A stretch of 64,000 nt of DNA from Clostridiales bacterium (lineage in GTDB: Bacteria; Bacillota; Clostridia; Christensenellales; QALW01). Below are positions 16,592 through 39,351 of the stretch, one piece after another. A program made the translations under genes and the position numbers. The notes below the pieces were generated by a model. That model saw only the letters and a program-made list of their open reading frames with translations, was not told the DNA's origin and did no database searches. The stretch lies in the NCBI GenBank assembly GCA_015069575.1, contig SVIH01000007.1:13925-77924 (forward strand), read 5' to 3'. Numbering within the stretch: the first letter of the stretch is position 1; each line of letters opens with the position of its first letter.

Positions 16592-17128
16592 TTAATCTTT
16601 ATAATTATATCCTGCTTCAAGTGCAAGCATATTTTTTTCAACAAGTTCTTGTTTTTTAGCAGGAACAAGTTTTTTAACAGTATCGATCATATCGTCAAAT
16701 GAAAAGATGCCTGTTTCTTTAATCATTTTACCAATTAAAATCATATTTGCTAAGGTTGGAACGCCTGCATCTATTGCCATCTGCGTTGCAGGAATATAAA
16801 ACGCCTTAACATCATCACGGTTTACTTTTCTTGAAACAAGAGTGCTATCAACAAAAATACTTCCGCCACTAACGGTATCATTTTCATATCTGTCTAACGA
16901 TGGAAGATTCATTGCAATTAAAACATCAGGATTAGAAACGATTGGTGAGCCAACAGGTTCATCACTTAAAATAACCCCGCAACTTGCTGTACCACCACGC
17001 ATTTCAGGACCGTATGAAGGCAACCAACTAACTTCTTTATCTTCAACGAGACCTTTAAATGCCAAGAATTTACCTGCAAACAAAACACCTTGTCCGCCAA
17101 ATCCTGAAATAAGAGTTTGTGTTGTCAT
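16592..17128 (-). CDS. 2-oxoacid:ferredoxin oxidoreductase gamma subunit
   Basis: [21 protein letters not shown]; start set at MTTQTL. Confidence 0.9.
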
Positions 17129-17132
17129 TTTA

Positions 17133-17882: not shown

Positions 17883-18943
17883 TATTTATTCTCCTTTGCA
17901 AGATTTTTAATGGATTCAAGCACCTGTTCAGGTGTTGGAATCATACCGCCTGAACGGTTACAAAGTGTAACAGGTTTTTTGCACTTTGTAGCAAGTTTAA
18001 CATCTTCAATCATCTGACCCATTGAAAGTTCAACAGAAACAAAACCTTTAACCTTATCAGCGGCTTTATCAAGAACTTCTGTTGGGAAGGGCCAAAGTGT
18101 AATAGGTCTGATCAAACCAACCTTAATGCCCTCTTTTCTTGCTGCAACTACTGCGTTTTTAGCAACACGGGCAGCAATACCGAATGCAACAACACAATAT
18201 TCTGCGTCGTCCATCATATATTCTTCATACATAACTTCATTTTCTTCAATGGTCTTATATCTTTCATAACGTTCAAAGTTAACCTTTTCAAGAACGTCAG
18301 GTTTAAGATAAAGTGAATTGATGATGTTATGCTTTCTTTCCATTTTTGTTCCGCGAACTGCCCATGGTTTTTCAACCTGAACGGGTTCAACATCAGGAAG
18401 AGCAACAGGCTCCATCATCTGACCCATTGTTCCATCTGCAAGAAGCATCGCGGGAACTCTGTATTTATCAGAAAGGTCAAAAGCCTTAATAGTAAGATCA
18501 GCCATTTCCTGAACAGAAGCAGGAGCGAGAACGATTAAACGGTAGTCACCATGTCCGCCGCCCTTTGTAGCCTGGAAATAATCTGACTGTGAAGGCTGAA
18601 TTCCGCCTAAACCGGGACCGCCACGCTGAACATTAACAATTAATGCAGGAAGATCTGCACCTGCAATATATGAGATACCTTCTTGTTTAAGGGAAATTCC
18701 AGGGCTTGAAGAAGACGTCATAACTCTAAAGCCTGCGCCTGCAACGCCATAAACCATATTGATGGCTGAAACTTCACTTTCTGCCTGAAGGAAAACACCG
18801 TCAACCTTTGGCATACGCTTTGCCATATATGCGGCAATTTCTGTTTGGGGGGTAATGGGATAACCGAAATAATGACGGCATCCTGCCTTGATAGCGGCTT
18901 CAGCGATCGCTTCATTACCTTTCATTAAAACTTTTTCTGCCAT
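17882..18943 (-). CDS. 2-oxoacid:ferredoxin oxidoreductase alpha subunit (3-methyl-2-oxobutanoate dehydrogenase VorB-like)
   Basis: KGNEAIAEAA, FGYPITPQTE, QAESE, TSSSSPGISL, QRGGPGLG. Confidence 0.9.
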   Translation of the reverse strand: MAEKVLMKGNEAIAEAAIKAGCRHYFGYPITPQTEIAAYMAKRMPKVDGVFLQAESEVSAINMVYGVAGAGFRVMTSSSSPGISLKQEGISYIAGADLPALIVNVQRGGPGLGGIQPSQSDYFQATKGGGHGDYRLIVLAPASVQEMADLTIKAFDLSDKYRVPAMLLADGTMGQMMEPVALPDVEPVQVEKPWAVRGTKMERKHNIINSLYLKPDVLEKVNFERYERYKTIEENEVMYEEYMMDDAEYCVVAFGIAARVAKNAVVAARKEGIKVGLIRPITLWPFPTEVLDKAADKVKGFVSVELSMGQMIEDVKLATKCKKPVTLCNRSGGMIPTPEQVLESIKNLAKENK

Positions 18944-18954
18944 TTTTATTCACC

Positions 18955-19161
18955 TCATTTTTCAACGGTAATTACACAGTCAGGGCACATTGTTGCACAA
19001 AAAGCGCAAGCAATACAACTATCCTGATCAGTAATTTCTGCCGGAGAATGTCCTTTCGCATTTAATTTGTCTTTTGCTAAAGCAATGATTTTTTTAGGAC
19101 ACGCATCAACACAAAGACCACAACCTTTGCAAGCGTCCGTTTTAAAAGTAACTTTTGCCAT
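18955..19161 (-). CDS. 2[4Fe-4S] ferredoxin (delta subunit)
   Basis: CKGCGLCVDACP and CIACAFCATMCP. Confidence 0.92.
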   Translation of the reverse strand: MAKVTFKTDACKGCGLCVDACPKKIIALAKDKLNAKGHSPAEITDQDSCIACAFCATMCPDCVITVEK

Positions 19162-19163: not shown

Positions 19164-19832
19164 TTAACTCTCCTTTATATCAAAGTACTTTTCCTGTAAT
19201 TTTAAAGTAAGTTTATTATCAAGGGAAACATCAATATCTTCACGAATCGTTGTATATATAACAGGTAACCCTGTTAATTTAGAAAGCCTTTCAGTTTCTT
19301 TTTGTGAAGATAAAATAATTTCAGCATCCGTATCGTTACCGATATTTGAGTTGTTGATTATTGCCGTAAATGGTATTTTACAGGCAAATTCAATCTCCTT
19401 CATAACTTCCAAGGCTTCTTCTGCCGTTCGTGTTAATGGGCGGTAACAGTTAAAAACAAAGCACATTTCGTAATTATTTTCTTCTTTTATATAAGGCGCA
19501 TATCTGCCTAAAGCATACGCACCCCTATCATCGCCGCCAACATCAAGCACTGCATAAAAATCCTTTTGTTGAACAAGGCTGTACGCTTCCTGTGGGAGCG
19601 CAGGTAAATCAACATTTGTATTCGCAAAAGCAGGTGAAATCAACTGAATATCTGCTTCTGTTAATTCCTTTAAACTATCCTTTGTTCTGAAATACGGATT
19701 AACTATATCAAGATCAGCAATTTTTACATTATAGCCATCTTGTTTTATTTTTAGTGCAAGGTTTACGGCAACATTTGTTTTTCCGCTACCGTAATGACCT
19801 GCTAAAATATAAACTCTTTTATACTTAGCCAT
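19164..19832 (-). CDS. MinD/ParA/CobQ-like P-loop ATPase of unknown function
   Basis: GHYGSGKT, ADLDIVNPYFR, LDVGGD. Confidence 0.75.
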   Translation of the reverse strand: MAKYKRVYILAGHYGSGKTNVAVNLALKIKQDGYNVKIADLDIVNPYFRTKDSLKELTEADIQLISPAFANTNVDLPALPQEAYSLVQQKDFYAVLDVGGDDRGAYALGRYAPYIKEENNYEMCFVFNCYRPLTRTAEEALEVMKEIEFACKIPFTAIINNSNIGNDTDAEIILSSQKETERLSKLTGLPVIYTTIREDIDVSLDNKLTLKLQEKYFDIKES

Positions 19833-20904
19833 TGCAAACCTTAACTATCCAATTATGTTCGTCTTTAATCTTACCCCACTGAATTCCTGTAAGGTTATCA
19901 TAAAGTTTTTGTGTAACCTCACCAATAAGGTTGTTTGAAACGGTATATGCTTCGCCTTCATAGAAAAGCTGACCGATAGGTGAAACAACTGCAGCTGTGC
20001 CTGTTCCCCATGCTTCTTCTAATTTGCCATTCTTTGCTGCTTCAAAAAGTTCCTGAACTGAGAAAAGACGTTCTTCAACTTCATATCCCCACTCTTTTAA
20101 AAGTGCGATACATGATCTTCTTGTTACACCGGGAAGAACTGAACCTGTAAGTTCGGGGGTGATGATCTTGCCATCAACCTTAAACATAACATTCATACTG
20201 CCAACTTCTTCAATATACTTTCTATGAACACCATCAAGCCAAAGCACCTGTGTGTAGCCTGCCAATTCAGCCTTTTGACCTGCACGAAGGCTTGCCGCAT
20301 AGTTACCACCGCATTTAGCGTAACCTGTTCCGCCTTTAACGGCACGAACATCAGTAGACTCAATAGCAATCTTAACAGGGTTAATGCCCTCTGCATAATA
20401 AGCGCCAACAGGTGAGCAGATTACAACGAAAGTTGCATTATGAACTGCGTGAACACCAAGGTGAGGATCGTTACCAAACATATATGGACGAAGATAAAGT
20501 GATGTACCTTCTGCTTTTGGTACCCAGTCCTTTTCAATTTCAACGATTGTTTTTAAAATATCAAGACATCCTTCTTCATCTAAAAGAGGAAGACAAAGGC
20601 GTTCTGCTGAATCATTAAGACGGCGGATGTTATCCATGGGTCTGAAAAGGCAGATTTCGTTATCAACTGTGCGATATGCCTTCATACCTTCAAAAATTTC
20701 TGCACCGTAGTGAAGAACTGTTGATGCAGGATGGATAGGCATTGGTCCGAAGGGAACGATTCTGCCATCGTGCCAGCCCTGTTCATCGTTATAATCCATA
20801 ATGAACATATGGTCAGTAAAAACTTTACCAAAGCCAAGTTTTGATTCATCCTGTGGCTTATTTTTTGGTTCTGTTGTTTTTGTTATTTTAATATCATACT
20901 TCAT
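19825..20904 (-). CDS. ilvE: branched-chain amino acid aminotransferase
   Basis: LGFGKVFTDHM, LHYGAEIFEGMKAY, YLRP, AKCGGNY, EEVGSMN, LPGVTR, GTAAV. Confidence 0.95.
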   Translation of the reverse strand: MKYDIKITKTTEPKNKPQDESKLGFGKVFTDHMFIMDYNDEQGWHDGRIVPFGPMPIHPASTVLHYGAEIFEGMKAYRTVDNEICLFRPMDNIRRLNDSAERLCLPLLDEEGCLDILKTIVEIEKDWVPKAEGTSLYLRPYMFGNDPHLGVHAVHNATFVVICSPVGAYYAEGINPVKIAIESTDVRAVKGGTGYAKCGGNYAASLRAGQKAELAGYTQVLWLDGVHRKYIEEVGSMNVMFKVDGKIITPELTGSVLPGVTRRSCIALLKEWGYEVEERLFSVQELFEAAKNGKLEEAWGTGTAAVVSPIGQLFYEGEAYTVSNNLIGEVTQKLYDNLTGIQWGKIKDEHNWIVKVCNG

Positions 20905-20919: not shown

Positions 20920-23220
20920 TTATAATTTATTTCTTTGTATTTTACCGCTTGTTGTTTTGGGAAGTTCATCTCTGAACACAACTATGCGGGGATATTTATA
21001 CGGTGCGGTACGCTGTTTTACGTATTCCTGAATTTCTTTCTTTAATTCTTCAGTAGCTTTTGTACCTTTAACAAGCACAATACTTGCTTTAACTACCTGA
21101 CCGCGAACCTCATCAGGCTCAGGTGAAACACCACATTCAAGAACGTAAGGAAGTTCCATAATAACGTTTTCAATTTCAAAAGGACCGATGCGGTAGCCTG
21201 ATGATTTAATAACATCATCAACCCTGCCAACATACCAGAAATAACCGTCTTCATCACGCCATGCAGTATCACCTGTGTGATAGAAGCCATCATGCATACA
21301 TTCGTTTGTTTTTTCAATATCGGTATAGTAACCATTAAACAAACCGCAAGGTACGCCGTTTGAAATATTAATACATATTTCACCAACTTCACCAACGGCA
21401 ACCGGCTGATCATCACTATCAAGAAGCTGAATATCGTAAAGCGGAACGGGTTTTCCCATTGAACCTAACCTTGCTTTTGTACCTGCAAGGTTTGCTAAAG
21501 CAACTGTTGTTTCCGTCTGCCCAAAGCCTTCCATAATCTGAAGACCTGTAGCTTTTTCAAACTGCCTGAAAACTTCGGGGTTTAAGGCTTCACCTGCTGT
21601 TGACATATGTTCTATAGTAGAAAGATCAAACTTGGAAAGATCTTGTTTGATCATCATTCTTAAGATTGTGGGCGGAGCACAGAATGTTGTAATGCCATAT
21701 TTTTTGAACATTGGCATAATATCGTTTGCATCAAAACGATCAAAATCATAAACGAAAATTCCTGCTTCGCAAAGCCACTGACCGTAAAGTTTGCCCCATG
21801 CAGCTTTAGCCCAACCGGTATCAGCAACTGTAAGATGTAAGCCATCTGAATTTACACAATGCCAATATTTTGCAGTAATAAAATGACCTAAAGGATATTT
21901 ATAATTGTGCATTGCAATTTTGGGATTGCCTGTTGTACCTGATGTAAAGTACATAAGCATTGGATCACTACCACAAGGTGTTTCTTCTGTTCTATCAAAT
22001 TTACCTGTATAAAGGCTGTATTCTTCATCAAAATTATGCCAGCCTTGGCGTGCTTCACCAACAATAATCTTGGTTTCAACACAGGGGCTTAATTCTGCTG
22101 CTTTATCAACCTCATCAGCAACGATACCGTCAGAAGTACAAATTATCATTTTTACATCTGCTTTATTGAAGCGGTATGTAATATCGTGTTCCTTTAACTG
22201 ATTTGTTGCAGGAATTGCTATTGCACCAATTTTATGAAGTGCAATCATACTGAACCAGAACTGATAATGGCGTTTTAAAATAAGCATTACCTTATCGCCT
22301 TTTTTAATGCCAAGCGATTTAAAATAGTTGGCAGTTTGTGAACTTGCGCGTTTAAGCTCGCCAAAGGTGAATTTACGCTCTTGTTTATCTTCAGCAATAT
22401 GAACCATAGCAATTTTATCTGCCTGTTCCCTGCCTAAGCGGTCAATAACATCGAAAGCAAAGTTGAATTTTTCTTCGTTTTTAAAGGATATTGCCTGTAA
22501 GATACCTGCTTCATCCTCAGTTGGAATAATAAAATCTTCCCAAACACGATTTTTCTTTACGCCATCCTTTTTCTTTTTAGGCGCAAAAACGAAATCTTTT
22601 GTACCGCCATGAACAAGCTGATGTGGTGATTCATTTGATGAATTAAGTACAAATGCATAGAAAATACAATCATCGTTTTCTACAGCTATCATTCCGTGAG
22701 GCTTTGATGAATCGTAATAAATACTATCGCCTTCGTGAAGAATTTCAACATGGTCACCGACCTGAACCTTTAAGGCGCCTTTAATTACGATATCACATTC
22801 CTGACCTTCGTGAGTTGTAAGTTCAATATCCTTATTTTGTGCGTTTTCATCATAATGGAAAACAACGTAAAGAGGCTCAGCAATACGGTTTTTAAAGCTT
22901 GATGCAAGGTTATAATAAGTCATACCGTGCGCTTTTTGAATTTCCTGTCCTTCACCCTTACGTGTTAAGGTGTATCCTGCAAGACGAGGACTTGTACCAT
23001 CAATAATATCCGTAACATCAACATTAAGGGCTAATGCGCACTTATACAAAAATGCAAAGTTAAGGTCATCCTGACCCATTTCACAGGCAATATATTCTTC
23101 TGTGCTTACACCTGTTTTCTGCGCCATTTCTTCAATAGATAAGCCAACGATTTCCCTTAACGTTTTGATTCGCTGTGCCATTTCCTGAATTTTAAATTCA
23201 AGACCTGTTGCAGTTTTCAT
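20920..23220 (-). CDS. XRE-HTH/cupin fused to acyl-CoA synthetase (copy under the Val T-box)
   Basis: N-terminal HTH (RIKTLREIVGLSIEEMA), cupin (HEGQE...GDSIYYDS..PHGM), and AMP-binding motifs YFTSGTTGNPK, GFGQTET, GRVDDVIKSSGYRI. Confidence 0.88.
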   Translation of the reverse strand: MKTATGLEFKIQEMAQRIKTLREIVGLSIEEMAQKTGVSTEEYIACEMGQDDLNFAFLYKCALALNVDVTDIIDGTSPRLAGYTLTRKGEGQEIQKAHGMTYYNLASSFKNRIAEPLYVVFHYDENAQNKDIELTTHEGQECDIVIKGALKVQVGDHVEILHEGDSIYYDSSKPHGMIAVENDDCIFYAFVLNSSNESPHQLVHGGTKDFVFAPKKKKDGVKKNRVWEDFIIPTEDEAGILQAISFKNEEKFNFAFDVIDRLGREQADKIAMVHIAEDKQERKFTFGELKRASSQTANYFKSLGIKKGDKVMLILKRHYQFWFSMIALHKIGAIAIPATNQLKEHDITYRFNKADVKMIICTSDGIVADEVDKAAELSPCVETKIIVGEARQGWHNFDEEYSLYTGKFDRTEETPCGSDPMLMYFTSGTTGNPKIAMHNYKYPLGHFITAKYWHCVNSDGLHLTVADTGWAKAAWGKLYGQWLCEAGIFVYDFDRFDANDIMPMFKKYGITTFCAPPTILRMMIKQDLSKFDLSTIEHMSTAGEALNPEVFRQFEKATGLQIMEGFGQTETTVALANLAGTKARLGSMGKPVPLYDIQLLDSDDQPVAVGEVGEICINISNGVPCGLFNGYYTDIEKTNECMHDGFYHTGDTAWRDEDGYFWYVGRVDDVIKSSGYRIGPFEIENVIMELPYVLECGVSPEPDEVRGQVVKASIVLVKGTKATEELKKEIQEYVKQRTAPYKYPRIVVFRDELPKTTSGKIQRNKL

Positions 23221-23249: not shown

Positions 23250-23520
23250 AATAAAAGCCCGCCTCAAAGATATGATTACTTTGAGACGAGCTAAAAATAC
23301 ACCCGCGGTACCACTCAAATTGCATAGTATATAACTACGCCCCTCAGGCTCAAACAAGCCTTATGCTTTTACGCAGCAATCACGGAAAGGTTCTACTAAA
23401 ACAAAATGTTTTTTCTTCCTTCCAGCTCAGAAGCTACAAACAAAATCATCGTTGTAATGGCTTACACCAACCGCCATCTCTCTAAACCTTTAACAACTTT
23501 GCCCTCTTCGTCAAAGCCTT
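23250..23520 (-). ncRNA. T-box riboswitch, specifier GUA (Val)
   Basis: Minus strand: GA motif CTTTGACGAAG/CTTCTGAG, AGAGAG, GGTGTAA, codon GTA (23437-23435) before g-CTTC, AGTA in stem II, T-box AATTTGAGTGGTACCGCG, and terminator gctcgtctcaaag...ctttgaggcgggc-tttt. Confidence 0.9.
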
Positions 23521-23535
23521 TTATAATATGGTCAA

Positions 23536-23573: not shown

Positions 23574-25841
23574 TTAAAGTTTATTGCGCATTATCTTACC
23601 GCTGATTGTCTTAGGAAGTTCATCACAGAACACAACAATTCTTGGGTATTTATAAGGTGCGGTATGGGATTTAACATATTCCTGAATTTCTTTCTTTAAG
23701 GCTTCTGTTTTCTCTGTTCCTTTAGTTAAAACTATGCTTGCTTTAACTACCTGACCCCTGATTTCATCAGGAGCAGCAGAAACACCACATTCAAGAACAT
23801 AAGGAAGTTCCATAATAACGCTTTCTATTTCAAAAGGCCCTATGCGGTAACCTGAAGACTTAATAACATCATCAATACGGGAAACGTACCAGAAATAGCC
23901 ATCTTCATCACGCCAGGCAGTATCCCCTGTGTGATATAAGCCATCATGCCAGGCATCTGTGGTTTTTTCATTATCAAGATAGTATTCTTTAAATAATCCA
24001 CAAGGTACATTTTTATCTGTATGAATTACGATTTCGCCTGTTTCACCGTTAGGTAACGAATTGCCATCAGGATCAACAATATCAACATCATACTGTGGTG
24101 AAGCCTTACCCATTGAGCCAATTTTGGGCGCTGTACCTCTTAAATTGCAGATGGTAAGGGTGGTTTCGGTTTGACCGAAGCCTTCCATAATCTCTAATCC
24201 CGTTGCCTTTTTAAATTGTTTATAAACCTCAGGATTAAGTGCTTCTCCTGCAGTAGTCAAATGATGAATTGAAGATAAATCGTATTTTGAAAGGTCTTCT
24301 TTAATAAGCATACGAAGCATCGTAGGTGGTGCACAGAAAGTTGTTATTTGATATTTTGCAAACATTGGTAAAATATCTGCAGCATCAAAACGATCAAAAT
24401 CATAAACAAAAACTGCACCTTCGCAGAGCCATTGACCGTAAAGTTTACCCCAAAGTGATTTACCCCAACCTGTATCAGAAATGGTAAGATGCAAGCCATC
24501 TCTTTCACAACAATGCCAATATTTTGCAGTAACAAAATGGCCTAAAGCATAAGTGTGTTTATGGCAAGCCATTTTGGGATTACCTGTTGTACCTGATGTA
24601 AAGAACATTAACGCTGCTTCATCACCTGAAGAAGTATCTTCACTTCTTTCAAACTTACCTGAAAAACGAACATATTCGCTGTTAAAATCATGCCAGCCCT
24701 CTTTTTGATCGCCAACAATGATTTTTGTTTCAACTTGCGGGCAATTTTTAGCGGCATTTTGGGCAATATTAGAAACATCACCATCAGAAGTACACACGAT
24801 AGCCTTTACGCCTGCGGCATTATAGCGGTATTCAAAATCGTGTTCCTTTAACTGATTTGTTGCAGGAATTGCTACTGCGCCTAACTTATGAAGGGCAACC
24901 ATAGAGAACCAGAACTGATAATGGCGTTTTAAAACAAGCATAACCTTATCGCCTTTTTTAATACCCAGTGAGGCAAAATAATTCGCAGTCTGATTTGATG
25001 CGCGCTTTATATCCTTAAAGGTAAAGCGTTTTTCGTTGTGATTTTTATCAACATAAAGCATTGCAAGTTTATCAGGATATTTATTTGCGATTTCATCAAC
25101 AACATCAAAACCAAAATTAAAGGAATCAGTATTTGTAAACTCTATATTCTCTAAAACGCCGTTTTCGTTTTCGTGACATTTAACGAATTTTTCGCAGATA
25201 AGAGATTCTGTTTTTTTAGTTGATGCAATACTTTCTCTTACAATCTCTTCCTTGGTGCTTTCACCAGGTAAAACTACTGCGCAGAAAACACATTCCTTGC
25301 CATCAACCGCAATCATACCGTGAGGCGTTGAAGAATCGTAATAAATACTATCGCCTTCGTGAAGAATTTCAACATTTTCACCAATTTGTACTTTAAGTGA
25401 GCCTGATAAAATCAAGTCGAATTCTTGGCCCGAATGCTTTGTTAAATGGATAGGTTTATCCTGTTGCAAAGGTGAATATTCATAACGAACCATATAAGGT
25501 TCGGCAATTTTATCGCGGAACTTTGGCGCAAGATTTTTAATATCAATGCCCTCTTCCTTTGCAGTAACCTGGCCCTGACCTTTTCTTGTTACGGTATAGC
25601 CTGAAAGGTGTGCGCCCTTGCCTTCAAGAAGCTCAGAAAGTTCAACATCAAAAACAAGTGCACATTTATGTATAAATGAGAAAGGAATATCTGCCTGACC
25701 GCCTTCATACTTGGTGTAAGCTTCAACTGTTACTTCGGTTTTTTGTGCCATTTCTTCAATAGAAAAACCCATAATATCACGCATTTCTTTAATTCGTGAT
25801 GCTATCTCCAAAAGTCGTGTCAAGGTTGTGTTAGTTTCCAT
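23574..25841 (-). CDS. XRE-HTH/cupin fused to acyl-CoA synthetase (copy under the Ile T-box)
   Basis: Paralog of 20920-23220; FFTSGTTGNPK, GFGQTET; start METNTT with RBS aaggag. Confidence 0.88.
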   Translation of the reverse strand: METNTTLTRLLEIASRIKEMRDIMGFSIEEMAQKTEVTVEAYTKYEGGQADIPFSFIHKCALVFDVELSELLEGKGAHLSGYTVTRKGQGQVTAKEEGIDIKNLAPKFRDKIAEPYMVRYEYSPLQQDKPIHLTKHSGQEFDLILSGSLKVQIGENVEILHEGDSIYYDSSTPHGMIAVDGKECVFCAVVLPGESTKEEIVRESIASTKKTESLICEKFVKCHENENGVLENIEFTNTDSFNFGFDVVDEIANKYPDKLAMLYVDKNHNEKRFTFKDIKRASNQTANYFASLGIKKGDKVMLVLKRHYQFWFSMVALHKLGAVAIPATNQLKEHDFEYRYNAAGVKAIVCTSDGDVSNIAQNAAKNCPQVETKIIVGDQKEGWHDFNSEYVRFSGKFERSEDTSSGDEAALMFFTSGTTGNPKMACHKHTYALGHFVTAKYWHCCERDGLHLTISDTGWGKSLWGKLYGQWLCEGAVFVYDFDRFDAADILPMFAKYQITTFCAPPTMLRMLIKEDLSKYDLSSIHHLTTAGEALNPEVYKQFKKATGLEIMEGFGQTETTLTICNLRGTAPKIGSMGKASPQYDVDIVDPDGNSLPNGETGEIVIHTDKNVPCGLFKEYYLDNEKTTDAWHDGLYHTGDTAWRDEDGYFWYVSRIDDVIKSSGYRIGPFEIESVIMELPYVLECGVSAAPDEIRGQVVKASIVLTKGTEKTEALKKEIQEYVKSHTAPYKYPRIVVFCDELPKTISGKIMRNKL

Positions 25842-25864: not shown

Positions 25865-26130
25865 ATAAAACCCGTCTCAAAAATTACTTTGAGACGAGTT
25901 TTGAATAACAAATACCCGCGGTACCACTCAATTTGCACAAAGTTTGTGCCACTTAAGGCTCAATTAAGCCCGATGCTTTTACGCAGCAATCACGGAAGAC
26001 GCCTACTGATAAAAATACTTTCGGATCTCCAGCTCAGAAGTGATAGGAATTATAATCTTTGTTTATCGGCTTTCACCAAATGCCGACTCTCTGAAAAACG
26101 TAAATTAAATCCGTCTTCGTCACAGCTTTT
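25865..26130 (-). ncRNA. T-box riboswitch, specifier AUC (Ile)
   Basis: GCTGTGACGAAG/CTTCTGAGC, CAGAGAG, GGTGAAA, codon ATC (26044-26042) before a-CTTC, T-box AATTGAGTGGTACCGCG, and terminator ctcgtctcaaag...ttgagacggg-tttt. Confidence 0.92.
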
Positions 26131-26148
26131 ATATTAAATTATGTGTAA

Positions 26149-26187: not shown

Positions 26188-28644
26188 CTATTTTTTGATA
26201 CCAAGAATTTTAATAGATTCATCGCGCATTTTGTACTTTAAAATCTTACCTGCCGCGTTCATTGGAAATTCCTTTGTAAAGATAAAATATCTTGGAACTT
26301 TATGTTTTGCCATATGGCTATTACCATATTCACGCATTTCGTCTTCAGAAGATTCTACCCCATCTTTAAGGATAATCCAAGCGCACGCTTCTTCACCGTA
26401 ACGTTGATCAGGAACACCAACAACCTGAACATCACGAACTTTATCGTTTGTTAAATAAAATTCTTCAATTTCCCTTGGATAAAGGTTTTCACCACCACGG
26501 ATTATCATGTCTTTTAAGCGGCCTGTAACCTTAAAGTAACCATCAGGTGTTCTGCAACAAATATCCCCTGAATGAAGCCAACCTTCAGCATCAATAGTCT
26601 GTTCCGTTGCTTTGGGCATCTTATAATAGCCTTTCATAATATTATAGCCCCTTGCAACGAATTCACCGTTTTCGCCATCAGGTAATTCTTCACCTGTTTC
26701 AGGATCGATTATCTTACATTCTACGCCCGGAAATGCGCTGCCAACAGTTTCAACACGATGATCAATATCTTCGTTAACTTCACCCATAGTACAGCCCGGT
26801 GAAGCCTCTGTCTGACCGTAAACTGAAATGATTTCTTTCATATTCATTTCATCGGCCGCTTTACGCATAAGTTCAGGGGGGCAGTTCGCACCTGCCATAA
26901 TACCTGTACGGATATATGAAAAATCTGTTTTTGCAAAATCTTCGTGATTAAACATCGCGATAAACATTGTGGGAACACCGTTAAAACAGGTGATTTTTTC
27001 ATTATTGATACAGGCAAGTGATGACTTTGGTGAGAAATATGGCATCGGGCAGATTGTTCCGCCATGTGTCATAAGATTTGTCATAGAAAGCACCATTCCA
27101 AAACAATGGAACATTGGCACTTGAATCATCATTCTGTCCGCAGTGGAAATATCCATACGGTCACCTATTATTTTACCGTTATTGATAATGTTATTATGGG
27201 TAAGCATAACGCCTTTGGGGAAGCCTGTTGTACCTGATGTGTATTGCATATTACAAACATCATCACTTTTAACAAGCTTTGCACGGCGGCGAACTTCTTC
27301 ATTGGGCACAAGCTCACTACGCTTAACAAAATCATCCCATTCCAAGCAACCATCCATATTAAAACCAACCGTTACAACATTGCGCAAGAACGGAAGAGTT
27401 TTTGAATAAAGAGGTGTGCCCGGCTGAATATCCTTTAATTCAGGGCAAAGTTCTTCAATAATTGCCTTATAATCAGAATCCTTGCAAGAATCTATCATAA
27501 CAAGGGTATGAGTATCGGACTGCCTTAAAAGGTATTCGGCTTCGTGAATCTTATATGCAGTATTAACAGTTACAAGAACTGCACCGATTTTAACTGTTGC
27601 CCAGAAGGTAAGGAACCACTCAGGTACATTTGTTGCCCAAATTGCAACATGATGACCGGGTTTAACGCCTAAGGAAATAAGTGCTGCGGCAACTTTATCA
27701 ACATCATCCCTGAACTGAGAATAAGTTCTTGTATAATCAAGTGTAGTATATTTAAATGCAAGTTGATCAGGATAACGCTCAACCATTTCATCGAGAACTT
27801 CAGAAAATGTTATATCAAGAACATCATATTTTGGCCATGGAAAAGTTCCTGTTTTTGAACGGTTATAATAAATTTCTTTTTGTTTAGTTGTGCCAAATTC
27901 GTTATTTGACATAAAGCTTACAAAATGTGTAAGAACAATATCGGGATCAGTTATTTCGTCGTTCCACAGTGCACAAACATATCCGTCATAATTAAGGCTT
28001 TTTAAAGCGTTTACAAAATCTTTAACGGGCAAATCGCCTTCACCAATCAATACATTTGTTTTGCCTGATTTATCACCAATTCGGACATATTGAATATATG
28101 CGCCAAGAGTTTGAATTGTGTTATCAGCTGATTCGTTGTTATTAAAATATGTTTCGCGAATATTCCAACTTACACCAATACAAGCTGTGCCAAACAAGTT
28201 AATTACATCAAGAACCTTTTTAGTATCTGATAAAGGCCCTTCTGTCTCAAGCAAAATTGAAATATCATATTTTTCAGCAGATTGAATTGCTAAAGAAAAT
28301 ACTTCCTTTAATTTTTCATCTGTTGGAATAGTTGAAAATTTTACTGTAACAGCAGAAACACCTGCATTTACTGCCATTTCAACGCATTGTTTAATATCTT
28401 CGCCGTTTGTATTTTCATCAATATATTCATTAAACGAGATAACGCTGATATTAATATGACGATTTACAAGTTTGCGTCTTGATGATGATTGATAGGAAGA
28501 ATGAAAAATACTATCACTGTGTTGCTTTTTTTCTTCTTTTGCATCAACAATTTCGAATCCCGCAAATCCATATTCACTTGTTAAATTGCAAAGTTCAAGA
28601 AATGAGCTTGCTTGAACATTATCGTTTGAAAACGCAAGTTTCAT
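26188..28644 (-). CDS. xylose-isomerase-like TIM barrel fused to acyl-CoA synthetase (under the Leu T-box)
   Basis: The N-terminal ~245 aa resemble a sugar-phosphate isomerase barrel (MKLAFS, YGFAGFEI, ILLET, IGEGDLP, YDGYV). The C-terminal part has MQYTSGTTGFPKG, VYGQTE, GRLKDMIIRGGEN. Confidence 0.82.
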   Translation of the reverse strand: MKLAFSNDNVQASSFLELCNLTSEYGFAGFEIVDAKEEKKQHSDSIFHSSYQSSSRRKLVNRHINISVISFNEYIDENTNGEDIKQCVEMAVNAGVSAVTVKFSTIPTDEKLKEVFSLAIQSAEKYDISILLETEGPLSDTKKVLDVINLFGTACIGVSWNIRETYFNNNESADNTIQTLGAYIQYVRIGDKSGKTNVLIGEGDLPVKDFVNALKSLNYDGYVCALWNDEITDPDIVLTHFVSFMSNNEFGTTKQKEIYYNRSKTGTFPWPKYDVLDITFSEVLDEMVERYPDQLAFKYTTLDYTRTYSQFRDDVDKVAAALISLGVKPGHHVAIWATNVPEWFLTFWATVKIGAVLVTVNTAYKIHEAEYLLRQSDTHTLVMIDSCKDSDYKAIIEELCPELKDIQPGTPLYSKTLPFLRNVVTVGFNMDGCLEWDDFVKRSELVPNEEVRRRAKLVKSDDVCNMQYTSGTTGFPKGVMLTHNNIINNGKIIGDRMDISTADRMMIQVPMFHCFGMVLSMTNLMTHGGTICPMPYFSPKSSLACINNEKITCFNGVPTMFIAMFNHEDFAKTDFSYIRTGIMAGANCPPELMRKAADEMNMKEIISVYGQTEASPGCTMGEVNEDIDHRVETVGSAFPGVECKIIDPETGEELPDGENGEFVARGYNIMKGYYKMPKATEQTIDAEGWLHSGDICCRTPDGYFKVTGRLKDMIIRGGENLYPREIEEFYLTNDKVRDVQVVGVPDQRYGEEACAWIILKDGVESSEDEMREYGNSHMAKHKVPRYFIFTKEFPMNAAGKILKYKMRDESIKILGIKK

Positions 28645-28646: not shown

Positions 28647-30017
28647 TTAATTTTCCTCATAAACAATTTTGTTAAGAGCATTCACATATGCGCGAATACA
28701 AGCGCCTACTATATCTGTTGAAACACCATTACCTGAATAAAGTTTGCCGTTTGCACGAAGGCGAATAAGTGATGAACCGACCGCTTCCCTGCCCTTTGTA
28801 ATTGACTGTACCTGAAAATCATCTAATTCATAATGATGACCTACAATCTGTTCAATAGCGTGGAATGCAGCATCAATAGGACCATCGCCTGTTGAAACAC
28901 CACTTAATTTTTCACCGTTCTTTTCTAAAGTGATGCTTGCTGTAGCAGTAATAATATTACCGTTGTTTACAACATAATTTACAAGATGGAATGTAGAGGG
29001 AACTTGCATTGCACTTGTTGCAATTATTGCTTCAAGTTCAGGGGCACCAATAACGCCTTTTTTTGCAATAACACGCTTGAATTCTTCAAAAACTTTACCG
29101 TTATCTTCACTTGTTAATTCATAACCAAGTGTTTTTGTAGCATTTGCAATATCGTTGATTGTAGCGTTTTCATCAAGACCTGAAAGGTTGATATTCTGAA
29201 CAGTCTGTTCAGTTTCAGCCTGTTTTTTACTTAAAATATCTTGAACAATTTTATGTATTTTTGTACTGTCAAGATTACATTCTGCCTGCATATCAAAAGA
29301 TTTTACTTTAAACACATCAGAAAGCGCGTCAATCGTAAGATAATTCTTATTTTCGGCACATTTAACACCATCTGCACCTGCTTTTATTGCTTCTAATGCT
29401 GAAGCTGCCGCCATATGTAATTTTTCATTTGGCTGAACAAAAACTAAAATATCTGTTTCGTTTTTAATTTCTGAAACTGCATTTTTAAAATCTTCAGGAA
29501 AATAAACGCCTGCATCATCGCAAATGGTAATTGACTGCACGCCGATTTCATTTAAAATTTTTGCAATTTCCTTAACAAAGCCATCTTCAGCCCTTGATGC
29601 ATCGCGTGCAACAAAGTGAATATTATTTGTTTTTTCCTTTGCTTTTAAACAGATTGCCTTGATTTTATCAAGCATTTTTGCACTTTTTAAGTGATACTGA
29701 TATTCCATCTGCACGGTTGAAACAGGTAAAACAACCTTAATACCCCACTGTTTTGCATCACAAATGGAAGCATATGCGCTATCAATAGCATCAATATTAT
29801 CAACTGAAACCAAAACACTTGCATTCTGTAATGAATTTGCAATAGTTCTGTAAACAACAGCATTTTCCTTTTCATTTAGTAATACGGGAAGTTCAATATA
29901 ATCAACACCGCTACCATCTAATAAAGTTGCGATATTTAATTTTTCCCTGAAAGTAAGGGGCTGTTTTTCTTCCTGTAAAACTGAAAGTGAAACGTCAGAA
30001 ACTGTAATTTTTTTCAT
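28647..30017 (-). CDS. 2-isopropylmalate synthase-like protein with a degenerate catalytic domain and intact C-terminal regulatory domain
   Basis: LeuA-like EKLNIA...GVDYIE, DASRA, and C-terminal GDGPIDA...STDIVGACIRAYVNALN. The RDGEQ and HxHND motifs are missing. Confidence 0.8.
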   Translation of the reverse strand: MKKITVSDVSLSVLQEEKQPLTFREKLNIATLLDGSGVDYIELPVLLNEKENAVVYRTIANSLQNASVLVSVDNIDAIDSAYASICDAKQWGIKVVLPVSTVQMEYQYHLKSAKMLDKIKAICLKAKEKTNNIHFVARDASRAEDGFVKEIAKILNEIGVQSITICDDAGVYFPEDFKNAVSEIKNETDILVFVQPNEKLHMAAASALEAIKAGADGVKCAENKNYLTIDALSDVFKVKSFDMQAECNLDSTKIHKIVQDILSKKQAETEQTVQNINLSGLDENATINDIANATKTLGYELTSEDNGKVFEEFKRVIAKKGVIGAPELEAIIATSAMQVPSTFHLVNYVVNNGNIITATASITLEKNGEKLSGVSTGDGPIDAAFHAIEQIVGHHYELDDFQVQSITKGREAVGSSLIRLRANGKLYSGNGVSTDIVGACIRAYVNALNKIVYEEN

Positions 30018-30037
30018 AAAATAGACTCCTTTAAAAA

Positions 30038-30300
30038 AATAAACCCGCAAAGATATTACTATCTATGCGGGATGATCAACATTTTTTTGACCACGGTACC
30101 ACCCGTTTTGCCCTTAATTTAAGGACCGCTTAATAGGTTCAGACAAACCTTTGTTCTGTTACGGGAACACCCGAAGTTTCTTACTTAAACTTCCGAAACC
30201 CTGCTCCAATACGAGACAATTTTAATTATGCCTATCGTTTTGCACCAAACAACGACTCTCTGAAAGCGCAAAAAATTAAAATTTAATATTTTCACCGCAT
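30038..30300 (-). ncRNA. T-box riboswitch, specifier CUC (Leu)
   Basis: GCGGTGAAAATA/TATTGGAGC, CAGAGAG, GGTGCAA, codon CTC (30215-30213) before g-TATT, T-box AAACGGGTGGTACCGTG, and terminator cccgcatagat...atctttgcggg-ttt. Confidence 0.88.
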
Positions 30301-30320
30301 TTAATATTTAAGTTTTTTAT

Positions 30321-30357: not shown

Positions 30358-31152
30358 TTAGTTATCTTCTAATAATAAAAGCGCGTTTTTATAGGCAATT
30401 TTCTCTTTTTGGTCATAAGGAATATCTAGGTTTAATAAATACTCTGCTTCCTTAATAGGATCCCACAGGGGAAAATCACTGCCAAAGAGCACTCTATCCG
30501 CACCGTAACCGTTTATGTATTTTTTTATTAACCCTTCAGGCATAAACATATGGCTTGAACACATATCAACAAAACAAGAGGTGTTTTTTAAAAGTTCAAG
30601 CGCTTCATCAAAGAGCATCCATCCCCCTAAATGCGCGCCTATTACAGTTAATTTAGGAAAATTATCAAGAACACGCTTTAATCTTTTAGGATGTGAAAAA
30701 TCGTACCTGGGGTCGCCACAATGTATCATCATCGGCAATTTGCCCTGAAGATAATCATACATTGGAAAAAGGCGCTGATCATCAATATTAAACTGTTGGG
30801 TATCGGGGTGAATTTTTACGCCTTTTAAACCAGACTCCTGAATAAATTCAACCTCGCCTAAAATATCATCCATACTAGCGTGAACCGTACCAAAGCCGTA
30901 CAATTCTTTATGATTATTTACTTCATAAAGTGCCGCCTGATTTACATGGCGTACTGTATTAGGTTTTAATGCAACCGGCAGAATTACGAATTTTTCAATA
31001 TTTGCTTGTTTTCCACATTCAATTAAAACCTTACTTGTACCGCATTTATCCCCTAAACCTTCTTTTAAATCGTAAAAATTTATTACATTTTCAGTTGCTT
31101 TTTGGGCTATGCTTTCCGGATAAACATGGGTATGAAAATCTATAAGTTTCAT
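30358..31152 (-). CDS. amidohydrolase family protein (Amidohydro_2)
   Basis: IDFHTH, GVKIHP, IHCG, AHLGG, LFGSDFP. Confidence 0.85.
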   Translation of the reverse strand: MKLIDFHTHVYPESIAQKATENVINFYDLKEGLGDKCGTSKVLIECGKQANIEKFVILPVALKPNTVRHVNQAALYEVNNHKELYGFGTVHASMDDILGEVEFIQESGLKGVKIHPDTQQFNIDDQRLFPMYDYLQGKLPMMIHCGDPRYDFSHPKRLKRVLDNFPKLTVIGAHLGGWMLFDEALELLKNTSCFVDMCSSHMFMPEGLIKKYINGYGADRVLFGSDFPLWDPIKEAEYLLNLDIPYDQKEKIAYKNALLLLEDN

Positions 31153-36364: not shown

Positions 36365-37635
36365 TTTTTCATCCTTATCAATGCACTGTTGGCGTGAGCG
36401 TCAAGACCTTCCTTATTGGCAAAATAAGCAACATCTTTTGCAACTTTTTCAAGTGCAGATTGTGTATAATATGAATACTGCATCTTTTTAACGAAATCAT
36501 CTACTGAAAGAGGGCTTGAAAATCTTGCAGTTCCGCTTGTGGGAAGCGTGTGATTAGGTCCTGCAAAATAATCGCCTAATGCTTCGGGACAAAATCTACC
36601 CATAAACACACTACCTGCATTTTTAACGCTATCTAAAATATCAAAGGGATTTTCTACTGCTAGTTCAAGATGTTCGGGTGCAATTTCATTTGCAATATCA
36701 ATAGCATACTTAATATCGGGGGCAACGATAATTTTACCGTTATTATCAATAGATGCCCTTGCAATATCGTATCTTGAAAGATTTTTTAGTTGTTCTTCAA
36801 TGGCACTTTGAACCTGTTTGGCAAGTTCCATAGAATCAGTTACAAGAACTGCACTTGCATTTTTATCGTGTTCTGCCTGTGACAGAAGGTCTGCCGCAAC
36901 AAACTGGGGATTACTGTTTTTATCGGCAACAACTAAAATTTCGCTTGGGCCTGCAATCATATCAATATCAACCATGCCAAACACCTGTCGTTTTGCTTCT
37001 GCAACGAAAGCGTTACCGGGCCCAACAATTTTATCAACCTTTGTAACGGTTTTTGTTCCGTAAGCAAGGGCTGCAACTGCCTGCGCGCCGCCAACTTTAA
37101 AGATTCTATCAACACCTGCAATCTTTGCAGCGGCTAAAATAACAGGATTTACCTTACCGTTTTTAAGTGGCGGTGTTGTTATGCATATTTCCTTGCAACC
37201 TGCAATTTTAGCAGGAATACTATCCATTAAAACTGTTGAAGGATATGCGGCTGTGCCACCGGGAACATAAAGACCTACCTTTTCAATAGGCATAACCTTT
37301 TGCCCTACCACAACGCCTTCCTGATTGTTTATAATAAAACTGTTTTTCTTTTGTGCTAAATGGAATTCCCTGATATTTTCTGCTGCATCCTTTAAGATAC
37401 GGATAAATTCAGGTTCAACAATATTAAAGGCTTCATCAATTTCTTCTTTGGTAACTTCAAGATTATCTAGTGAAGCACCATCAAATTTTAAGGAATATTC
37501 CTTTAAGGCATCGTCACCATTTGTAATAACATTTTCAATTATATCTTTAACTATTAAAGAAACGTCACCTGTTGGGTTATTACGGGCAAAAATTTCTTCG
37601 TTTGATACCTGACCAAATTCAAATATTTTAATCAT
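36361..37635 (-). CDS. hisD: histidinol dehydrogenase
   Basis: GLYVPGG, GPGNAFV, AGPSE, SQAEHD, APEHL, GPNHTLPT. Confidence 0.96.
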   Translation of the reverse strand: MIKIFEFGQVSNEEIFARNNPTGDVSLIVKDIIENVITNGDDALKEYSLKFDGASLDNLEVTKEEIDEAFNIVEPEFIRILKDAAENIREFHLAQKKNSFIINNQEGVVVGQKVMPIEKVGLYVPGGTAAYPSTVLMDSIPAKIAGCKEICITTPPLKNGKVNPVILAAAKIAGVDRIFKVGGAQAVAALAYGTKTVTKVDKIVGPGNAFVAEAKRQVFGMVDIDMIAGPSEILVVADKNSNPQFVAADLLSQAEHDKNASAVLVTDSMELAKQVQSAIEEQLKNLSRYDIARASIDNNGKIIVAPDIKYAIDIANEIAPEHLELAVENPFDILDSVKNAGSVFMGRFCPEALGDYFAGPNHTLPTSGTARFSSPLSVDDFVKKMQYSYYTQSALEKVAKDVAYFANKEGLDAHANSALIRMKK

Positions 37636-38261
37636 TGTTCATTCTCCACAATCTGTTGTAATTTGTTTTTGATTTCGTTAATTTTTTCTGTTTTAAAGCC
37701 AAAAGAAGACTTATTTGCAATTAAGCGGGCACTTATTGAAACAATATCTTCAATAGGCTCTAAACCGTTTTCATAAAGAGTTTTGCCTGTTTCAACAATA
37801 TCAACGATAACATCTGAAAGTTCTAAAATAGGTGCAAGTTCAATGGAACCGTTAAGGTGGATTATATCAATATCCCTTGCCTTCATCTGATAATGCTTTG
37901 CGGCAATATTAGAAAACTTTGTTGCAACCTTTAATGTTGTTGCGGTGTTATCCCTGAAATCTTTTTTTGCGGCAACTGCCATACGACAAGCGCCCATTTT
38001 TAAATCAAGAAGTTCATAAACATCAGGCTCATATTCAAGCAGAATATCTTTGCCTGCCACGCCGATATCTGCGGCACCGCGTTCAACATAAATAGAAACA
38101 TCACTTGGTTTTACCCAAAAGTATCTTATACCTTTTTCCTTATTTTCAAAGGTTAAACGGCGGTTGTTTTCTTTAATGGATTCACATTCGTAGCCTGCTT
38201 TTTCAAAAAGAGCATAAACCTTTTCACCAAGCCTGCCCTTTGGAAGTGCAATATTAAGCAT
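37632..38261 (-). CDS. hisG: ATP phosphoribosyltransferase (short form)
   Basis: IALPKGRL, GKDILLE, GSIELAP, DIVETGKTL. Confidence 0.95.
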   Translation of the reverse strand: MLNIALPKGRLGEKVYALFEKAGYECESIKENNRRLTFENKEKGIRYFWVKPSDVSIYVERGAADIGVAGKDILLEYEPDVYELLDLKMGACRMAVAAKKDFRDNTATTLKVATKFSNIAAKHYQMKARDIDIIHLNGSIELAPILELSDVIVDIVETGKTLYENGLEPIEDIVSISARLIANKSSFGFKTEKINEIKNKLQQIVENEQ

Positions 38262-39351
38262 CAGATAACTCCTTTTTGTTTAATTTTACTGCTTTTTTGT
38301 ATTTTATTTTTTTGGGGATTTCATAAGAAACAAGTACGGTTTCACCATTTTTTGAAAGTTCTTTTTGTGCTGAAAGTACATTTATTGGATCTTCGTTTTT
38401 ATTTACTACTAAAACATAATCCACATCATATTCAGGTAAAGAATTATTTAATCTTTCAAACCCATCAAGATAAACTGCAAAACCTATGGCGCTTGAATTC
38501 TTTTTTAATTTGCGCATTAACGCATCGTACTGACCGCCTGAAAGCACCCCTGTTGGTATGCCTTTTACATAGCCCTTAAAAACGATACCACTATAATAGC
38601 GCATATTGTTTGAAAGGGAAAAGTTAATGGTAATATTTTTTGAAAAACCACATTCGTTTAATGCATTTATAACTGTTTTAAATTCATTAAAAGCGTTTTT
38701 ACCTTCATCAGATTTTAGCATTAAATCGTTTTCAAGTTTATTAATATCAGTATAATTATTAATTAACAGGCATGCTTTTTCGGCTTGGTCTTCTGTAATT
38801 TTAGATTCAAGCACCATCTGATTTATTGCGCCTTCATTTTTTAAAGAGATATATTCGTTTACGGTTTTTATATTTTCTTCGTTTAAACCACTTTCCTTTA
38901 AATATGCTAATACGATGCCTGCGTGGGAAAGTTCAAGCATATACTGAGAACTTATGGCTTTAAGGCTTTCACAGGCTAAAGATGTAACTTCACAAATTTC
39001 ATAAACACCGATATTGCCAACACATTCAAGACCTGTTTGCATAATTTCCTTAAAACGCTTTGATTCACCTGAAACTCGGTAAACATTTTCGTTATAATAA
39101 AGTTTCTGAACGCTGTTTTCATTACCAAGGTGATTAATTATTGAAAGTGTAACGTCAGGCTTTAATGCAAGAAGTTTACCGTTAGTATCGGTAAAGGTAA
39201 TTACCCTATCGGAAATTAAAAAATCCTTATTACGAACATATAGATCGTATTCCTCAAAGGTGCTCATTTTATACTGAGTATATCCGTATTTTGAATAAAG
39301 TGAGCGTAATTTAAATACTGCAAGCTCTTCGTTTTTTAAAATTGTTTCCAT
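38254..39351 (-). CDS. hisZ: ATP phosphoribosyltransferase regulatory subunit
   Basis: HisRS-like LKPDVT, YYSGIVFKG, GGQYD; adjacent to the short hisG. Confidence 0.9.
   Translation of the reverse strand: METILKNEELAVFKLRSLYSKYGYTQYKMSTFEEYDLYVRNKDFLISDRVITFTDTNGKLLALKPDVTLSIINHLGNENSVQKLYYNENVYRVSGESKRFKEIMQTGLECVGNIGVYEICEVTSLACESLKAISSQYMLELSHAGIVLAYLKESGLNEENIKTVNEYISLKNEGAINQMVLESKITEDQAEKACLLINNYTDINKLENDLMLKSDEGKNAFNEFKTVINALNECGFSKNITINFSLSNNMRYYSGIVFKGYVKGIPTGVLSGGQYDALMRKLKKNSSAIGFAVYLDGFERLNNSLPEYDVDYVLVVNKNEDPINVLSAQKELSKNGETVLVSYEIPKKIKYKKAVKLNKKELSDA

Follow-up and report, generated by a model that had tools for sequence, protein, structure and literature searches.

A LeuA-derived pseudoenzyme and candidate leucine sensor encoded beside an acyl-CoA ligase in Clostridia

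A leuA-like gene between a leucine T-box and a ligase gene

We analyzed a window of 64,000 nucleotides from the genome of a Clostridiales bacterium (Christensenellales; assembly GCA_015069575.1, contig SVIH01000007.1, positions 13,925 to 77,924), in which the minus strand carries, one after another, a leucine-specific T-box leader, a gene resembling that for 2-isopropylmalate synthase (LeuA), and a gene for an acyl-coenzyme A (CoA) ligase. The leuA-like gene, whose product we call pLeuA, is an intact open reading frame (ORF) at 28647–30017 encoding 456 amino acids. It starts with an ATG at 30017 and ends with a TAA at 28647–28649, which leaves a 2-nucleotide spacer before the ATG of the ligase gene at 28644. 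The latter (26188–28644, minus strand) specifies an 818-amino-acid fusion of a xylose-isomerase-like triose-phosphate isomerase (TIM) barrel (residues 1 to ~265) to an ANL acyl-CoA ligase (residues ~270–818) that is presumed to act on isovalerate; Pfam recognized AP_endonuc_2 (E = 1.9e-12), AMP-binding (5.6e-96) and AMP-binding_C in it. An earlier reading of the window, made from the sequence alone (hereafter the sequence-only reading), had described an intact frame that sits under a Leu T-box and ends 2 bp before a TIM-barrel/ligase gene, and both the sequence and a cmscan search bore this out.

The leader upstream of pLeuA matched the T-box family RF00230 at 30065–30304 (minus strand; cmscan, 115.3 bits against a gathering score of 93, E = 2.7e-25), and alignment placed the leucine codon CUC at the specifier position. 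A terminator hairpin (CCCGCA...TGCGGG) with a T-run lies at 30033–30072 (minus strand), followed by an AAAGGAG ribosome-binding site 8 nucleotides before the pLeuA start codon. Such a Leu T-box implies induction on leucine starvation. The arrangement recurred in related genomes, from which we kept 80 loci, 71 of them with a full-length pLeuA gene (72 including the window's own). After 6 loci with fewer than 300 nucleotides of upstream sequence were dropped, a T-box motif was found by regular-expression search within 700 nucleotides upstream of the gene in 72 of the remaining 74, with CTC in specifier context in 70; of 11 loci scanned with cmscan, 8 had a T-box that reached the gathering score, as had 5 of 7 further loci. 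Two loci (L017, at 4475–5002, and L031, at 5408–5939) have tandem T-boxes before pLeuA, the distal one with a CUC (Leu) and the proximal one with an AUC (Ile) specifier.

The protein divides into three parts, all encoded on the minus strand. Residues 1–225 (29343–30017) form a degenerate HMGL-like/DRE-TIM barrel without metal or catalytic residues, as judged by Pfam (HMGL-like at residues 15–221, 98.1 bits, E = 7.6e-28), alignment and an AlphaFold2 (AF2) model. Residues 226–325 (29043–29342) align to the LeuA linker, with the HxSGIH motif absent and the LGYxL subdomain kept. Residues 326–456 together with the stop codon (28647–29042) make up the regulatory domain, a beta-beta-beta-alpha unit occurring twice, which Pfam and conservation identify as LeuA_dimer (PF08502 at residues 327–451, 106 bits, E = 1.8e-30) and which holds the presumed leucine site. 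The AF2 model, with a predicted local distance difference test (pLDDT) score of 92.2 that falls below 50 at residues 270–277, matched the LeuA barrel 3ewb over 260 residues (VIA Z 35.6, root-mean-square deviation 1.6 Å), and full-length Mycobacterium tuberculosis LeuA (1sr9) and its leucine-bound form (3fig) were also among the fold matches. The build of barrel, LGYxL linker and LeuA_dimer domain is that of LeuA itself, also called isopropylmalate synthase (IPMS; barrels in 3ewb, 3rmj and 3eeg, full-length enzyme in 1sr9 and 3fig). All of the NCBIfam LeuA models matched pLeuA, at 145–219 bits and under their cut-offs of 517–748; the highest-scoring was NF002086 (218.8 bits against 532), and TIGR00973 gave 202.3 against 598.7. 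Current annotations call members of the family either 'hypothetical protein' or, erroneously, 2-isopropylmalate synthase, and in the ESM Atlas relatives carry only the automatic name '2-isopropylmalate synthase family protein'.

Loss of the active site and retention of the regulatory domain

For comparison with the enzyme, we aligned 38 members of the pLeuA family with 20 true LeuA-like genes, taken from a class-level sample of the same class, and counted a column as conserved when it reached at least 90% within its group. The motif D[TV]TLRDGEQ was present in all 20 LeuAs, and in pLeuA residues 8–17 read DVSLSVLQEE, with S12, V13, L14, Q15 and E16 aligned to RDGEQ. The HxH motif of LeuA faces Q195-P-N197, both in phmmer alignments to 3ewb and 3rmj and in the family alignment, the histidine of the TSxxH block is replaced by Q103, and the glutamate of the EDA motif by R138. 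The ligands of the divalent metal have been replaced in this way (the aspartate of RDG by V13, and the His-x-His after strand 7 by Q195 and N197), as have the catalytic arginine (R80 in M. tuberculosis numbering, S12 here) and the catalytic glutamate (E218, R138 here). In M. tuberculosis IPMS the mutations R80A and E218A abolished activity, according to the accessible part of the report (PMC10464499). Two further motifs have gone: the LeuA-conserved N, G, G, N and A columns of NGxGERAGN are not kept, the ECT.NG..GNA block having no counterpart, and neither are the S, G, H and A columns of the HxSGIH/SGxHA linker motif. Over the whole barrel, 77 columns were conserved in LeuA and 14 in the pLeuA family, with 8 in common; over the linker the corresponding counts were 21, 4 and 1.

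The loss extends across the family. Among the best 150 cluster representatives, 107 were full-length, and by our reading of the table RDG and HxH were both absent from 105 of these, the exceptions being one representative with RDG only (P0265) and one with both motifs (P0266). The sequence-only reading had noted the replacement of DTTLRDGEQ by DVSLSVLQEE and of HxHND by QPNEK, together with the absence of NGIGERAGN and H-x-S-G-I-H, and had called the protein non-catalytic; the alignments to LeuA agree on each motif, and for the LeuA reaction the last claim is well supported, with the Asp, both His, the Arg and the Glu of the DRE-TIM site replaced. In sum, pLeuA shares the fold and the regulatory domain of LeuA, whereas all of the catalytic features, like the NCBIfam equivalog cut-offs, separate it from the enzyme. 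From its sequence, the conclusion that pLeuA is a LeuA-derived pseudoenzyme unable to make isopropylmalate is well supported.

The regulatory domain has the opposite profile, with 18 columns conserved in LeuA, 32 in the pLeuA family, and 11 identical. Sixteen of the 18 LeuA-conserved columns are kept in pLeuA, and the other two have changed conservatively (D to E327 and Y to F401), which accords with the earlier description of this domain as well preserved. The motifs GDGPxDA and STD are common to LeuA and pLeuA, and the segments GDGPIDA (residues 377–383) and STDIVGACIRAYVNALN (residues 433–449) fall within the best-conserved part of the family. In all 128 family sequences G377, G379, G431 and D435 are invariant, and the AF2 model places these residues at the N-termini of the two regulatory-domain helices. 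In M. tuberculosis LeuA two helix N-termini flank the carboxylate of leucine, which is bound in pockets of the dimer interface, according to the available portion of PMC11057210, and these two helix N-termini correspond to the most invariant motifs of pLeuA. When searched against the PDB by phmmer, the regulatory domain alone gave only chance-level matches to NrdI; a profile search started from it gave weak matches to 3f6g, 1sr9 and 3fig. The sequence-only claim that pLeuA keeps its leucine-binding domain finds its support in this conservation, and by homology to LeuA the domain most likely binds leucine.

Relatives of pLeuA are widespread, comprising 229 clusters (50% identity) at E ≤ 1e-30. 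In a collection of species genomes, 592 of the 599 pattern matches listed encode a relative, which amounts to at least 592 species genomes. None of the 72 full-length orthologues contained an internal stop. An 88-amino-acid pLeuA fragment beside an intact ligase in one genome (G057) had suggested decay, which we rejected on finding that the contig end cuts the gene. We calculated the ratio of nonsynonymous to synonymous substitution rates (dN/dS; NG86, 23 pairs at least 75% identical), which was 0.03–0.17 in the barrel, 0.04–0.29 in the linker, and 0.00–0.06 in the regulatory domain, where a single pair gave 0.198. A per-domain dN/dS had been proposed as a check along with the sequence-only reading, and values far below 1 in each domain contradict neutral decay: purifying selection is acting on all three parts of the protein. 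Compared with the window's pLeuA, the regulatory domain had a median identity of 70%, the barrel 40% and the linker 31%. At the former active-site positions close relatives share the motifs PVSTVQMEYxYHLK, DAxRAE, CDDxG and VQPS[DN]; across the family the former HxH position varies (QPS, ECS, SCS and others). In a quick unrooted IQ-TREE phylogeny, a branch with an SH-aLRT of 99 split the 38 pLeuA members from the 20 LeuAs.

Pairing with the ligase and the surrounding cluster

A further difference from LeuA lies in the neighborhood, since in these loci pLeuA is never beside leuBCD and is instead beside the acyl-CoA ligase. The ligase gene lies directly downstream of pLeuA in 78 of the 80 loci, the remaining 2 stopping at a contig edge, and it also directly follows pLeuA in three more distant pairs of 33–40% identity. 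The gap between the two genes has a median of 3.5 nucleotides and is at most 5 nucleotides, or an overlap, in 47 of the 78 loci; identity of the ligase domain across loci with the pair is 67–91%. The NCBIfam model that fitted the fusion ligase best was NF009233, which describes a generic family of fatty-acid CoA ligases; the score of 674.9 bits was under its cut-off of 832, and the best PDB relatives were fatty-acyl, feruloyl and malonyl-CoA synthetases. An AF2 model of the whole 818-residue protein had a confident TIM domain and a poor ligase domain (mean pLDDT 72.7).

The pairing runs in one direction only. We scored 200 genomes of the class, a sample whose related members are not independent, and found 42 pLeuA carriers by profile (40 scoring at least 553 bits, together with G106 and G075) and 81 carriers of the fused ligase by a profile of its TIM domain. 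The fused ligase was present in 41 of the 42 pLeuA carriers, and in the exception (G169) pLeuA lies at a contig edge; conversely, pLeuA was absent from 40 of the 81 ligase carriers. None of eight ligase-only loci that we inspected had a pLeuA-like ORF beside the ligase, the neighbors being unrelated genes, and four of the eight had a T-box directly upstream with CTC among its candidate specifiers. Of the 40 genomes in which pLeuA scored high, 38 had no other LeuA-like match at E ≤ 1e-20, and 21 of the 40 ligase-only genomes had a LeuA-like match at E ≤ 1e-50. This distribution indicates that the ligase does not need pLeuA to work and that pLeuA occurs mostly where a real LeuA is gone. Because about half of the sampled ligase carriers do without pLeuA, an add-on leucine sensor fits better than a catalytic partner, and by analogy with LeuA regulation a role for pLeuA as a feedback subunit of the ligase would fit the data.

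The TIM barrel of the fused ligase (27850–28644, minus strand) has WNIRE, YVRIGD and ALWN in the window's subgroup at the places of canonical metal motifs (WD.H, HVH.[HK]D and SLEWD) that are kept in distant or stand-alone barrels (L046, L049, L051, L056, L061, L072 and L120–L127), and its sequence suggests that it may be a second pseudo-domain in the making. In a mirror-tree comparison, distances in the pLeuA barrel tracked those in the TIM domain (r = 0.868; partial r = 0.557 given the ligase domain), with a partial r of 0.187 between barrel and ligase domain given the TIM domain; the signal is confounded because the barrel and the TIM domain are both fast-evolving parts. An Amidohydro_2 metal hydrolase gene (30358–31152, minus strand; Pfam, 1.5e-23) is a frequent neighbor of the pair, with a homologue no more than 6 kb away in 38 of the 80 loci, either upstream or directly after the ligase (examples are L019, 9841–10668, and L024, 8837–9634). 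The best PDB relative of this protein is the uncharacterised BB4693 (entry 3irs).

Downstream of the ligase gene, on the same strand, two more T-boxes each precede a ligase of another kind, so that three T-boxes stand in series with Leu CUC, Ile AUC and Val GUA specifiers. The second T-box (25887–26132; RF00230, 101.4 bits, specifier AUC from alignment) leads a gene at 23574–25841 for a protein that Pfam resolves into HTH_XRE, Cupin_2 and acyl-CoA synthetase domains and that resembles MbcS (NF047394, 459.1 bits, under the cut-off of 850); it is presumed to be a 2-methylbutyrate-CoA ligase. The third T-box (23279–23523; 98.2 bits, specifier GUA from alignment) leads a second gene of the same architecture at 20920–23220 (NF047394, 443.3 bits, under the same cut-off), presumed to encode an isobutyrate-CoA ligase. 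The HTH_XRE and Cupin_2 module is N-terminal in both MbcS-like synthetases, each behind its own T-box, and it may be a built-in sensor or regulator, paralleling pLeuA on the Leu arm. Next come the branched-chain amino acid aminotransferase IlvE (19825–20904; NF009897, 475.7 bits, above the cut-off of 307), which is the sole Aminotran_4 match in the genome, a ParA/Mrp-like P-loop protein of 222 amino acids (19164–19832; weak Pfam ParA/CbiA matches and no NCBIfam match), and a 2-oxoisovalerate-type 2-oxoacid:ferredoxin oxidoreductase (VOR; vorDABC, 16592–19161; NF005507 VorB, 567.2 bits, above the cut-off of 399), all on the minus strand. The VOR genes comprise a 68-amino-acid delta ferredoxin with two CxxCxxCxxxCP motifs (18955–19161) and alpha-type (17882–18943), beta (17133–17882) and gamma (16592–17170) subunits, and Pfam matched POR_N, PFOR_II, TPP_enzyme_C and POR in this set. 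Across related loci, IlvE and VOR lie near the pair in 13 of 80, counting the flanks that were fetched. At least two arrangements occur: in 7 loci the IlvE, ParA-like and VOR genes follow the ligase, and in 5 or 6 they precede pLeuA, with the ParA/Mrp-like gene between the other two in both cases. The two loci with tandem T-boxes have IlvE and VOR directly after the ligase and no MbcS-like ligase nearby.

The enzyme types of a salvage route (ligase, 2-oxoacid:ferredoxin oxidoreductase and aminotransferase) are thus all present and linked in the window. The genome itself (1.59 Mb, 95.6% complete) has only three HMGL-like genes, namely pLeuA, a Re-citrate-synthase-like gene and oadA, and at that completeness we found neither a true LeuA nor a match to ketol-acid reductoisomerase (KARI/IlvC); it has one Iso_dh, one aconitase (a 739-amino-acid frame) and one ILVD_EDD gene. 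With no true LeuA, no KARI, and a single Iso_dh and aconitase, we found no pathway for making the branched-chain amino acids (BCAAs) de novo. Given the content of the cluster and the lack of LeuA and IlvC, salvage of branched short-chain acids into leucine, isoleucine and valine is its most likely function, a reading based on annotation and conserved linkage. The sequence-only reading had not taken in this larger route, with its Ile and Val T-box ligases, IlvE and VOR, which would account for the ligase. A myxobacterial-type route to isovaleryl-CoA by way of 3-hydroxy-3-methylglutaryl-CoA was considered and dropped, none of its enzyme families being in the cluster.

The synthesis of leucine, isoleucine and valine from isovalerate, 2-methylbutyrate and isobutyrate is a long-known ability of gut and rumen anaerobes, reportedly indicated for rumen bacteria by labelling work of the 1960s. 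For rumen methanogens, the accessible part of a more specific source (PMC10658910) describes conversion of 2-methylbutyrate to isoleucine and of isovalerate to leucine. As far as the available text of PMC10026030 goes, MbcS of Staphylococcus aureus converts scavenged branched short-chain acids to CoA esters that feed fatty-acid synthesis, the purified enzyme activating 2-methylbutyrate and isobutyrate and taking isovalerate poorly. This preference fits a different ligase on the Leu arm and MbcS-like ligases on the Ile and Val arms. The two neighboring ligases match the MbcS model best but differ from MbcS in their HTH-cupin modules and T-boxes, whereas the gene paired with pLeuA encodes an ANL ligase of a different subfamily, with a TIM barrel at its N-terminus.

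Elsewhere in the window, a hisZ-like gene (TIGR00443, 190.2 bits, under the cut-off of 271.65) adjoins a short-form hisG (196.5 bits against 75.75) at 37632–39351 (minus strand), and the two head a his operon that runs down to 31156. Beyond the his region, 42127–48543 (minus strand) holds a very long ORF of 2138 amino acids.

Possible roles of pLeuA

The route that we propose would begin with uncharged tRNA-Leu opening the Leu T-box, upon which pLeuA and the ligase would be co-translated. The ligase would turn scavenged isovalerate into isovaleryl-CoA, VOR would reductively carboxylate this to 4-methyl-2-oxopentanoate, and IlvE would transaminate the product to leucine; 2-methylbutyrate and isobutyrate would be handled in the same way, starting from the MbcS-like ligases behind the Ile and Val T-boxes. 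[quoted passage not shown] The sequences show the loss of the active site, selection on every domain, the T-box specifiers and a conserved gene order; that the substrate is isovalerate, that pLeuA binds leucine and touches the ligase, and that its effect is inhibitory are inferences, and on the strength of homology and gene context we lean slightly towards the view that pLeuA is a leucine feedback sensor which acts through the ligase on an isovalerate-to-leucine salvage route. A bolder version would have Clostridia that were losing de novo leucine synthesis keep a dead LeuA, whose sensor was re-wired onto the isovalerate-CoA ligase by way of that enzyme's TIM barrel to give a leucine-gated holoenzyme; this version we hold tentatively, as somewhat short of an even bet.

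Several observations weigh against a leucine sensor of this kind. Leucine is assigned as the ligand of the regulatory domain on the grounds of homology and the T-box, isoleucine is the ligand of the LeuA_dimer domains of citramalate synthases, and two loci (L017 and L031) carry Leu and Ile T-boxes in tandem. In the 95.6%-complete assembly, aragorn found 41 tRNAs, including leucine tRNAs with the anticodons UAG, UAA, AAG, CAA and CAG and three tRNA-Val(UAC); tRNA-Leu(GAG) was not found, so the CUC specifier has no perfectly matching tRNA there, and no tRNA-Ile was among the 41 either. The substrate of the fusion ligase is assigned from context, its best NCBIfam model being generic and scoring under its cut-off. 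G075 and G106 have a true LeuA as well as the pair, so pLeuA cannot be regarded as just a replacement for LeuA. Finally, a simple sensor model leaves three features unexplained: the fused TIM barrel, with metal residues that are canonical in distant and stand-alone forms and not in the window's subgroup; the linked Amidohydro_2 gene; and the purifying selection on the pLeuA barrel, with its close-family motifs such as VQPS[DN].

Some of these features would be accommodated if pLeuA were a structural or assembly partner that senses nothing, and either stabilised the ligase or docked it to VOR so that isovaleryl-CoA is channelled, or alternatively if its regulatory domain bound isoleucine, valine or 4-methyl-2-oxopentanoate; we consider this unlikely. 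A structural role would suit a catalytically dead barrel and linker that are still under purifying selection, as well as the correlation between barrel and TIM-domain distances, which persists as a partial r of 0.557 against 0.187 for the ligase domain, and there is precedent in HMGL-like barrels that form channelling complexes with CoA-dependent partners, such as the aldolase-dehydrogenases 1nvm and 4jn6, which were among the fold matches. However, the mirror-tree signal suffers from the confounding described above, and a structural role does not account for why conservation peaks in the regulatory domain (median identity 70%, versus 40% in the barrel; 32 columns at 90% or more) or for the retention of LeuA's helix-N-terminus motifs. 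Binding of another ligand draws on the tandem T-boxes, but it runs counter to the CUC specifier found in context in 70 of 74 loci.

It is distinctly improbable, in our view, that the pLeuA barrel has gained a metal-independent catalytic or binding function (on an acyl-CoA or acyl-adenylate, or in proofreading) together with the fused TIM barrel and the amidohydrolase, in a reaction not so far recognized. Such a function would give meaning to the motifs that close relatives share at former active-site positions, to the low dN/dS of the barrel, and to the linkage of three different TIM-barrel proteins, including Amidohydro_2 in 38 of 80 loci and, in some lineages, a TIM domain with metal motifs. 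Against it, only 14 barrel columns are conserved at 90% or more across 128 sequences, 8 of them shared with LeuA, the former HxH position is variable, and the ligase exists under T-box control without pLeuA.

We see only a slim chance that the pair supplies leucine through a ligase that acts on something other than isovalerate (another precursor or a longer branched acid), or that the ligase serves the synthesis of iso-fatty acid primers. The generic NCBIfam model that comes nearest, the fatty-acyl, feruloyl and malonyl-CoA synthetases among PDB relatives, and the lack of a T-box at four of the eight stand-alone ligases all leave room for other substrates, but the Leu T-box points to induction on leucine starvation, IlvE and VOR lie directly beside the pair in several arrangements, and the Ile and Val arms are served by relatives of MbcS, which in its characterised form is poor on isovalerate in the accessible part of PMC10026030. 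That pLeuA is a functionless, decaying relic of leuA has next to no chance of being right and was rejected, for although its catalytic residues are gone and the rest of the leucine pathway is absent from the genome, all 72 orthologues have an intact frame, each domain has a dN/dS far below 1, the family is wide (229 clusters, and 592 of the 599 pattern matches listed) and the synteny is fixed.

Returning to pLeuA as a leucine feedback sensor, the closest known case in its proposed working, by analogy, would be HisZ, a catalytically inactive paralogue of histidyl-tRNA synthetase that serves as the regulatory subunit of the short-form ATP phosphoribosyltransferase HisG. Like HisZ, pLeuA is a dead paralogue of an enzyme that binds the amino acid of the pathway, and it is kept under purifying selection. 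HisZ partners the first committed enzyme and mediates end-product control; for pLeuA, synteny and the gene gap point to a possible partnership with the ligase, and the control is proposed by analogy. The two differ in that the enzyme from which pLeuA derives belongs to the de novo route and its presumed client to a salvage route, and in that this client ligase also occurs without pLeuA. The T-box, too, has familiar relatives: Leu-specifier T-boxes of the same family (RF00230), with terminator/antiterminator control, gate leucine supply at the ilv-leu and leuS genes of Firmicutes, whereas the one in the window gates a dead LeuA and a CoA ligase instead, and no working leucine-pathway enzyme.

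A literature search that covered few subscription journals turned up no published description of the pLeuA protein, nor a paper in which the activating genes of a route from branched acids to BCAAs, or the control of those genes, are assigned. The locus offers candidate genes for all three arms of such a route (Leu, Ile and Val) with one T-box per amino acid, and its Leu arm adds a pseudoenzyme that resembles a borrowed feedback sensor. The annotation of pLeuA also has consequences for reconstructing the metabolism of uncultured gut Clostridia, since genomes that carry it would be scored as leuA+. If the sensor reading is true, pLeuA would clearly exemplify an allosteric domain that has outlived its own enzyme to regulate another; in the bolder version, this sensor would have moved as a separate pseudoenzyme subunit from a biosynthetic to a salvage pathway, and the pair would name long-missing genes of the isovalerate-to-leucine route in rumen and gut anaerobes.

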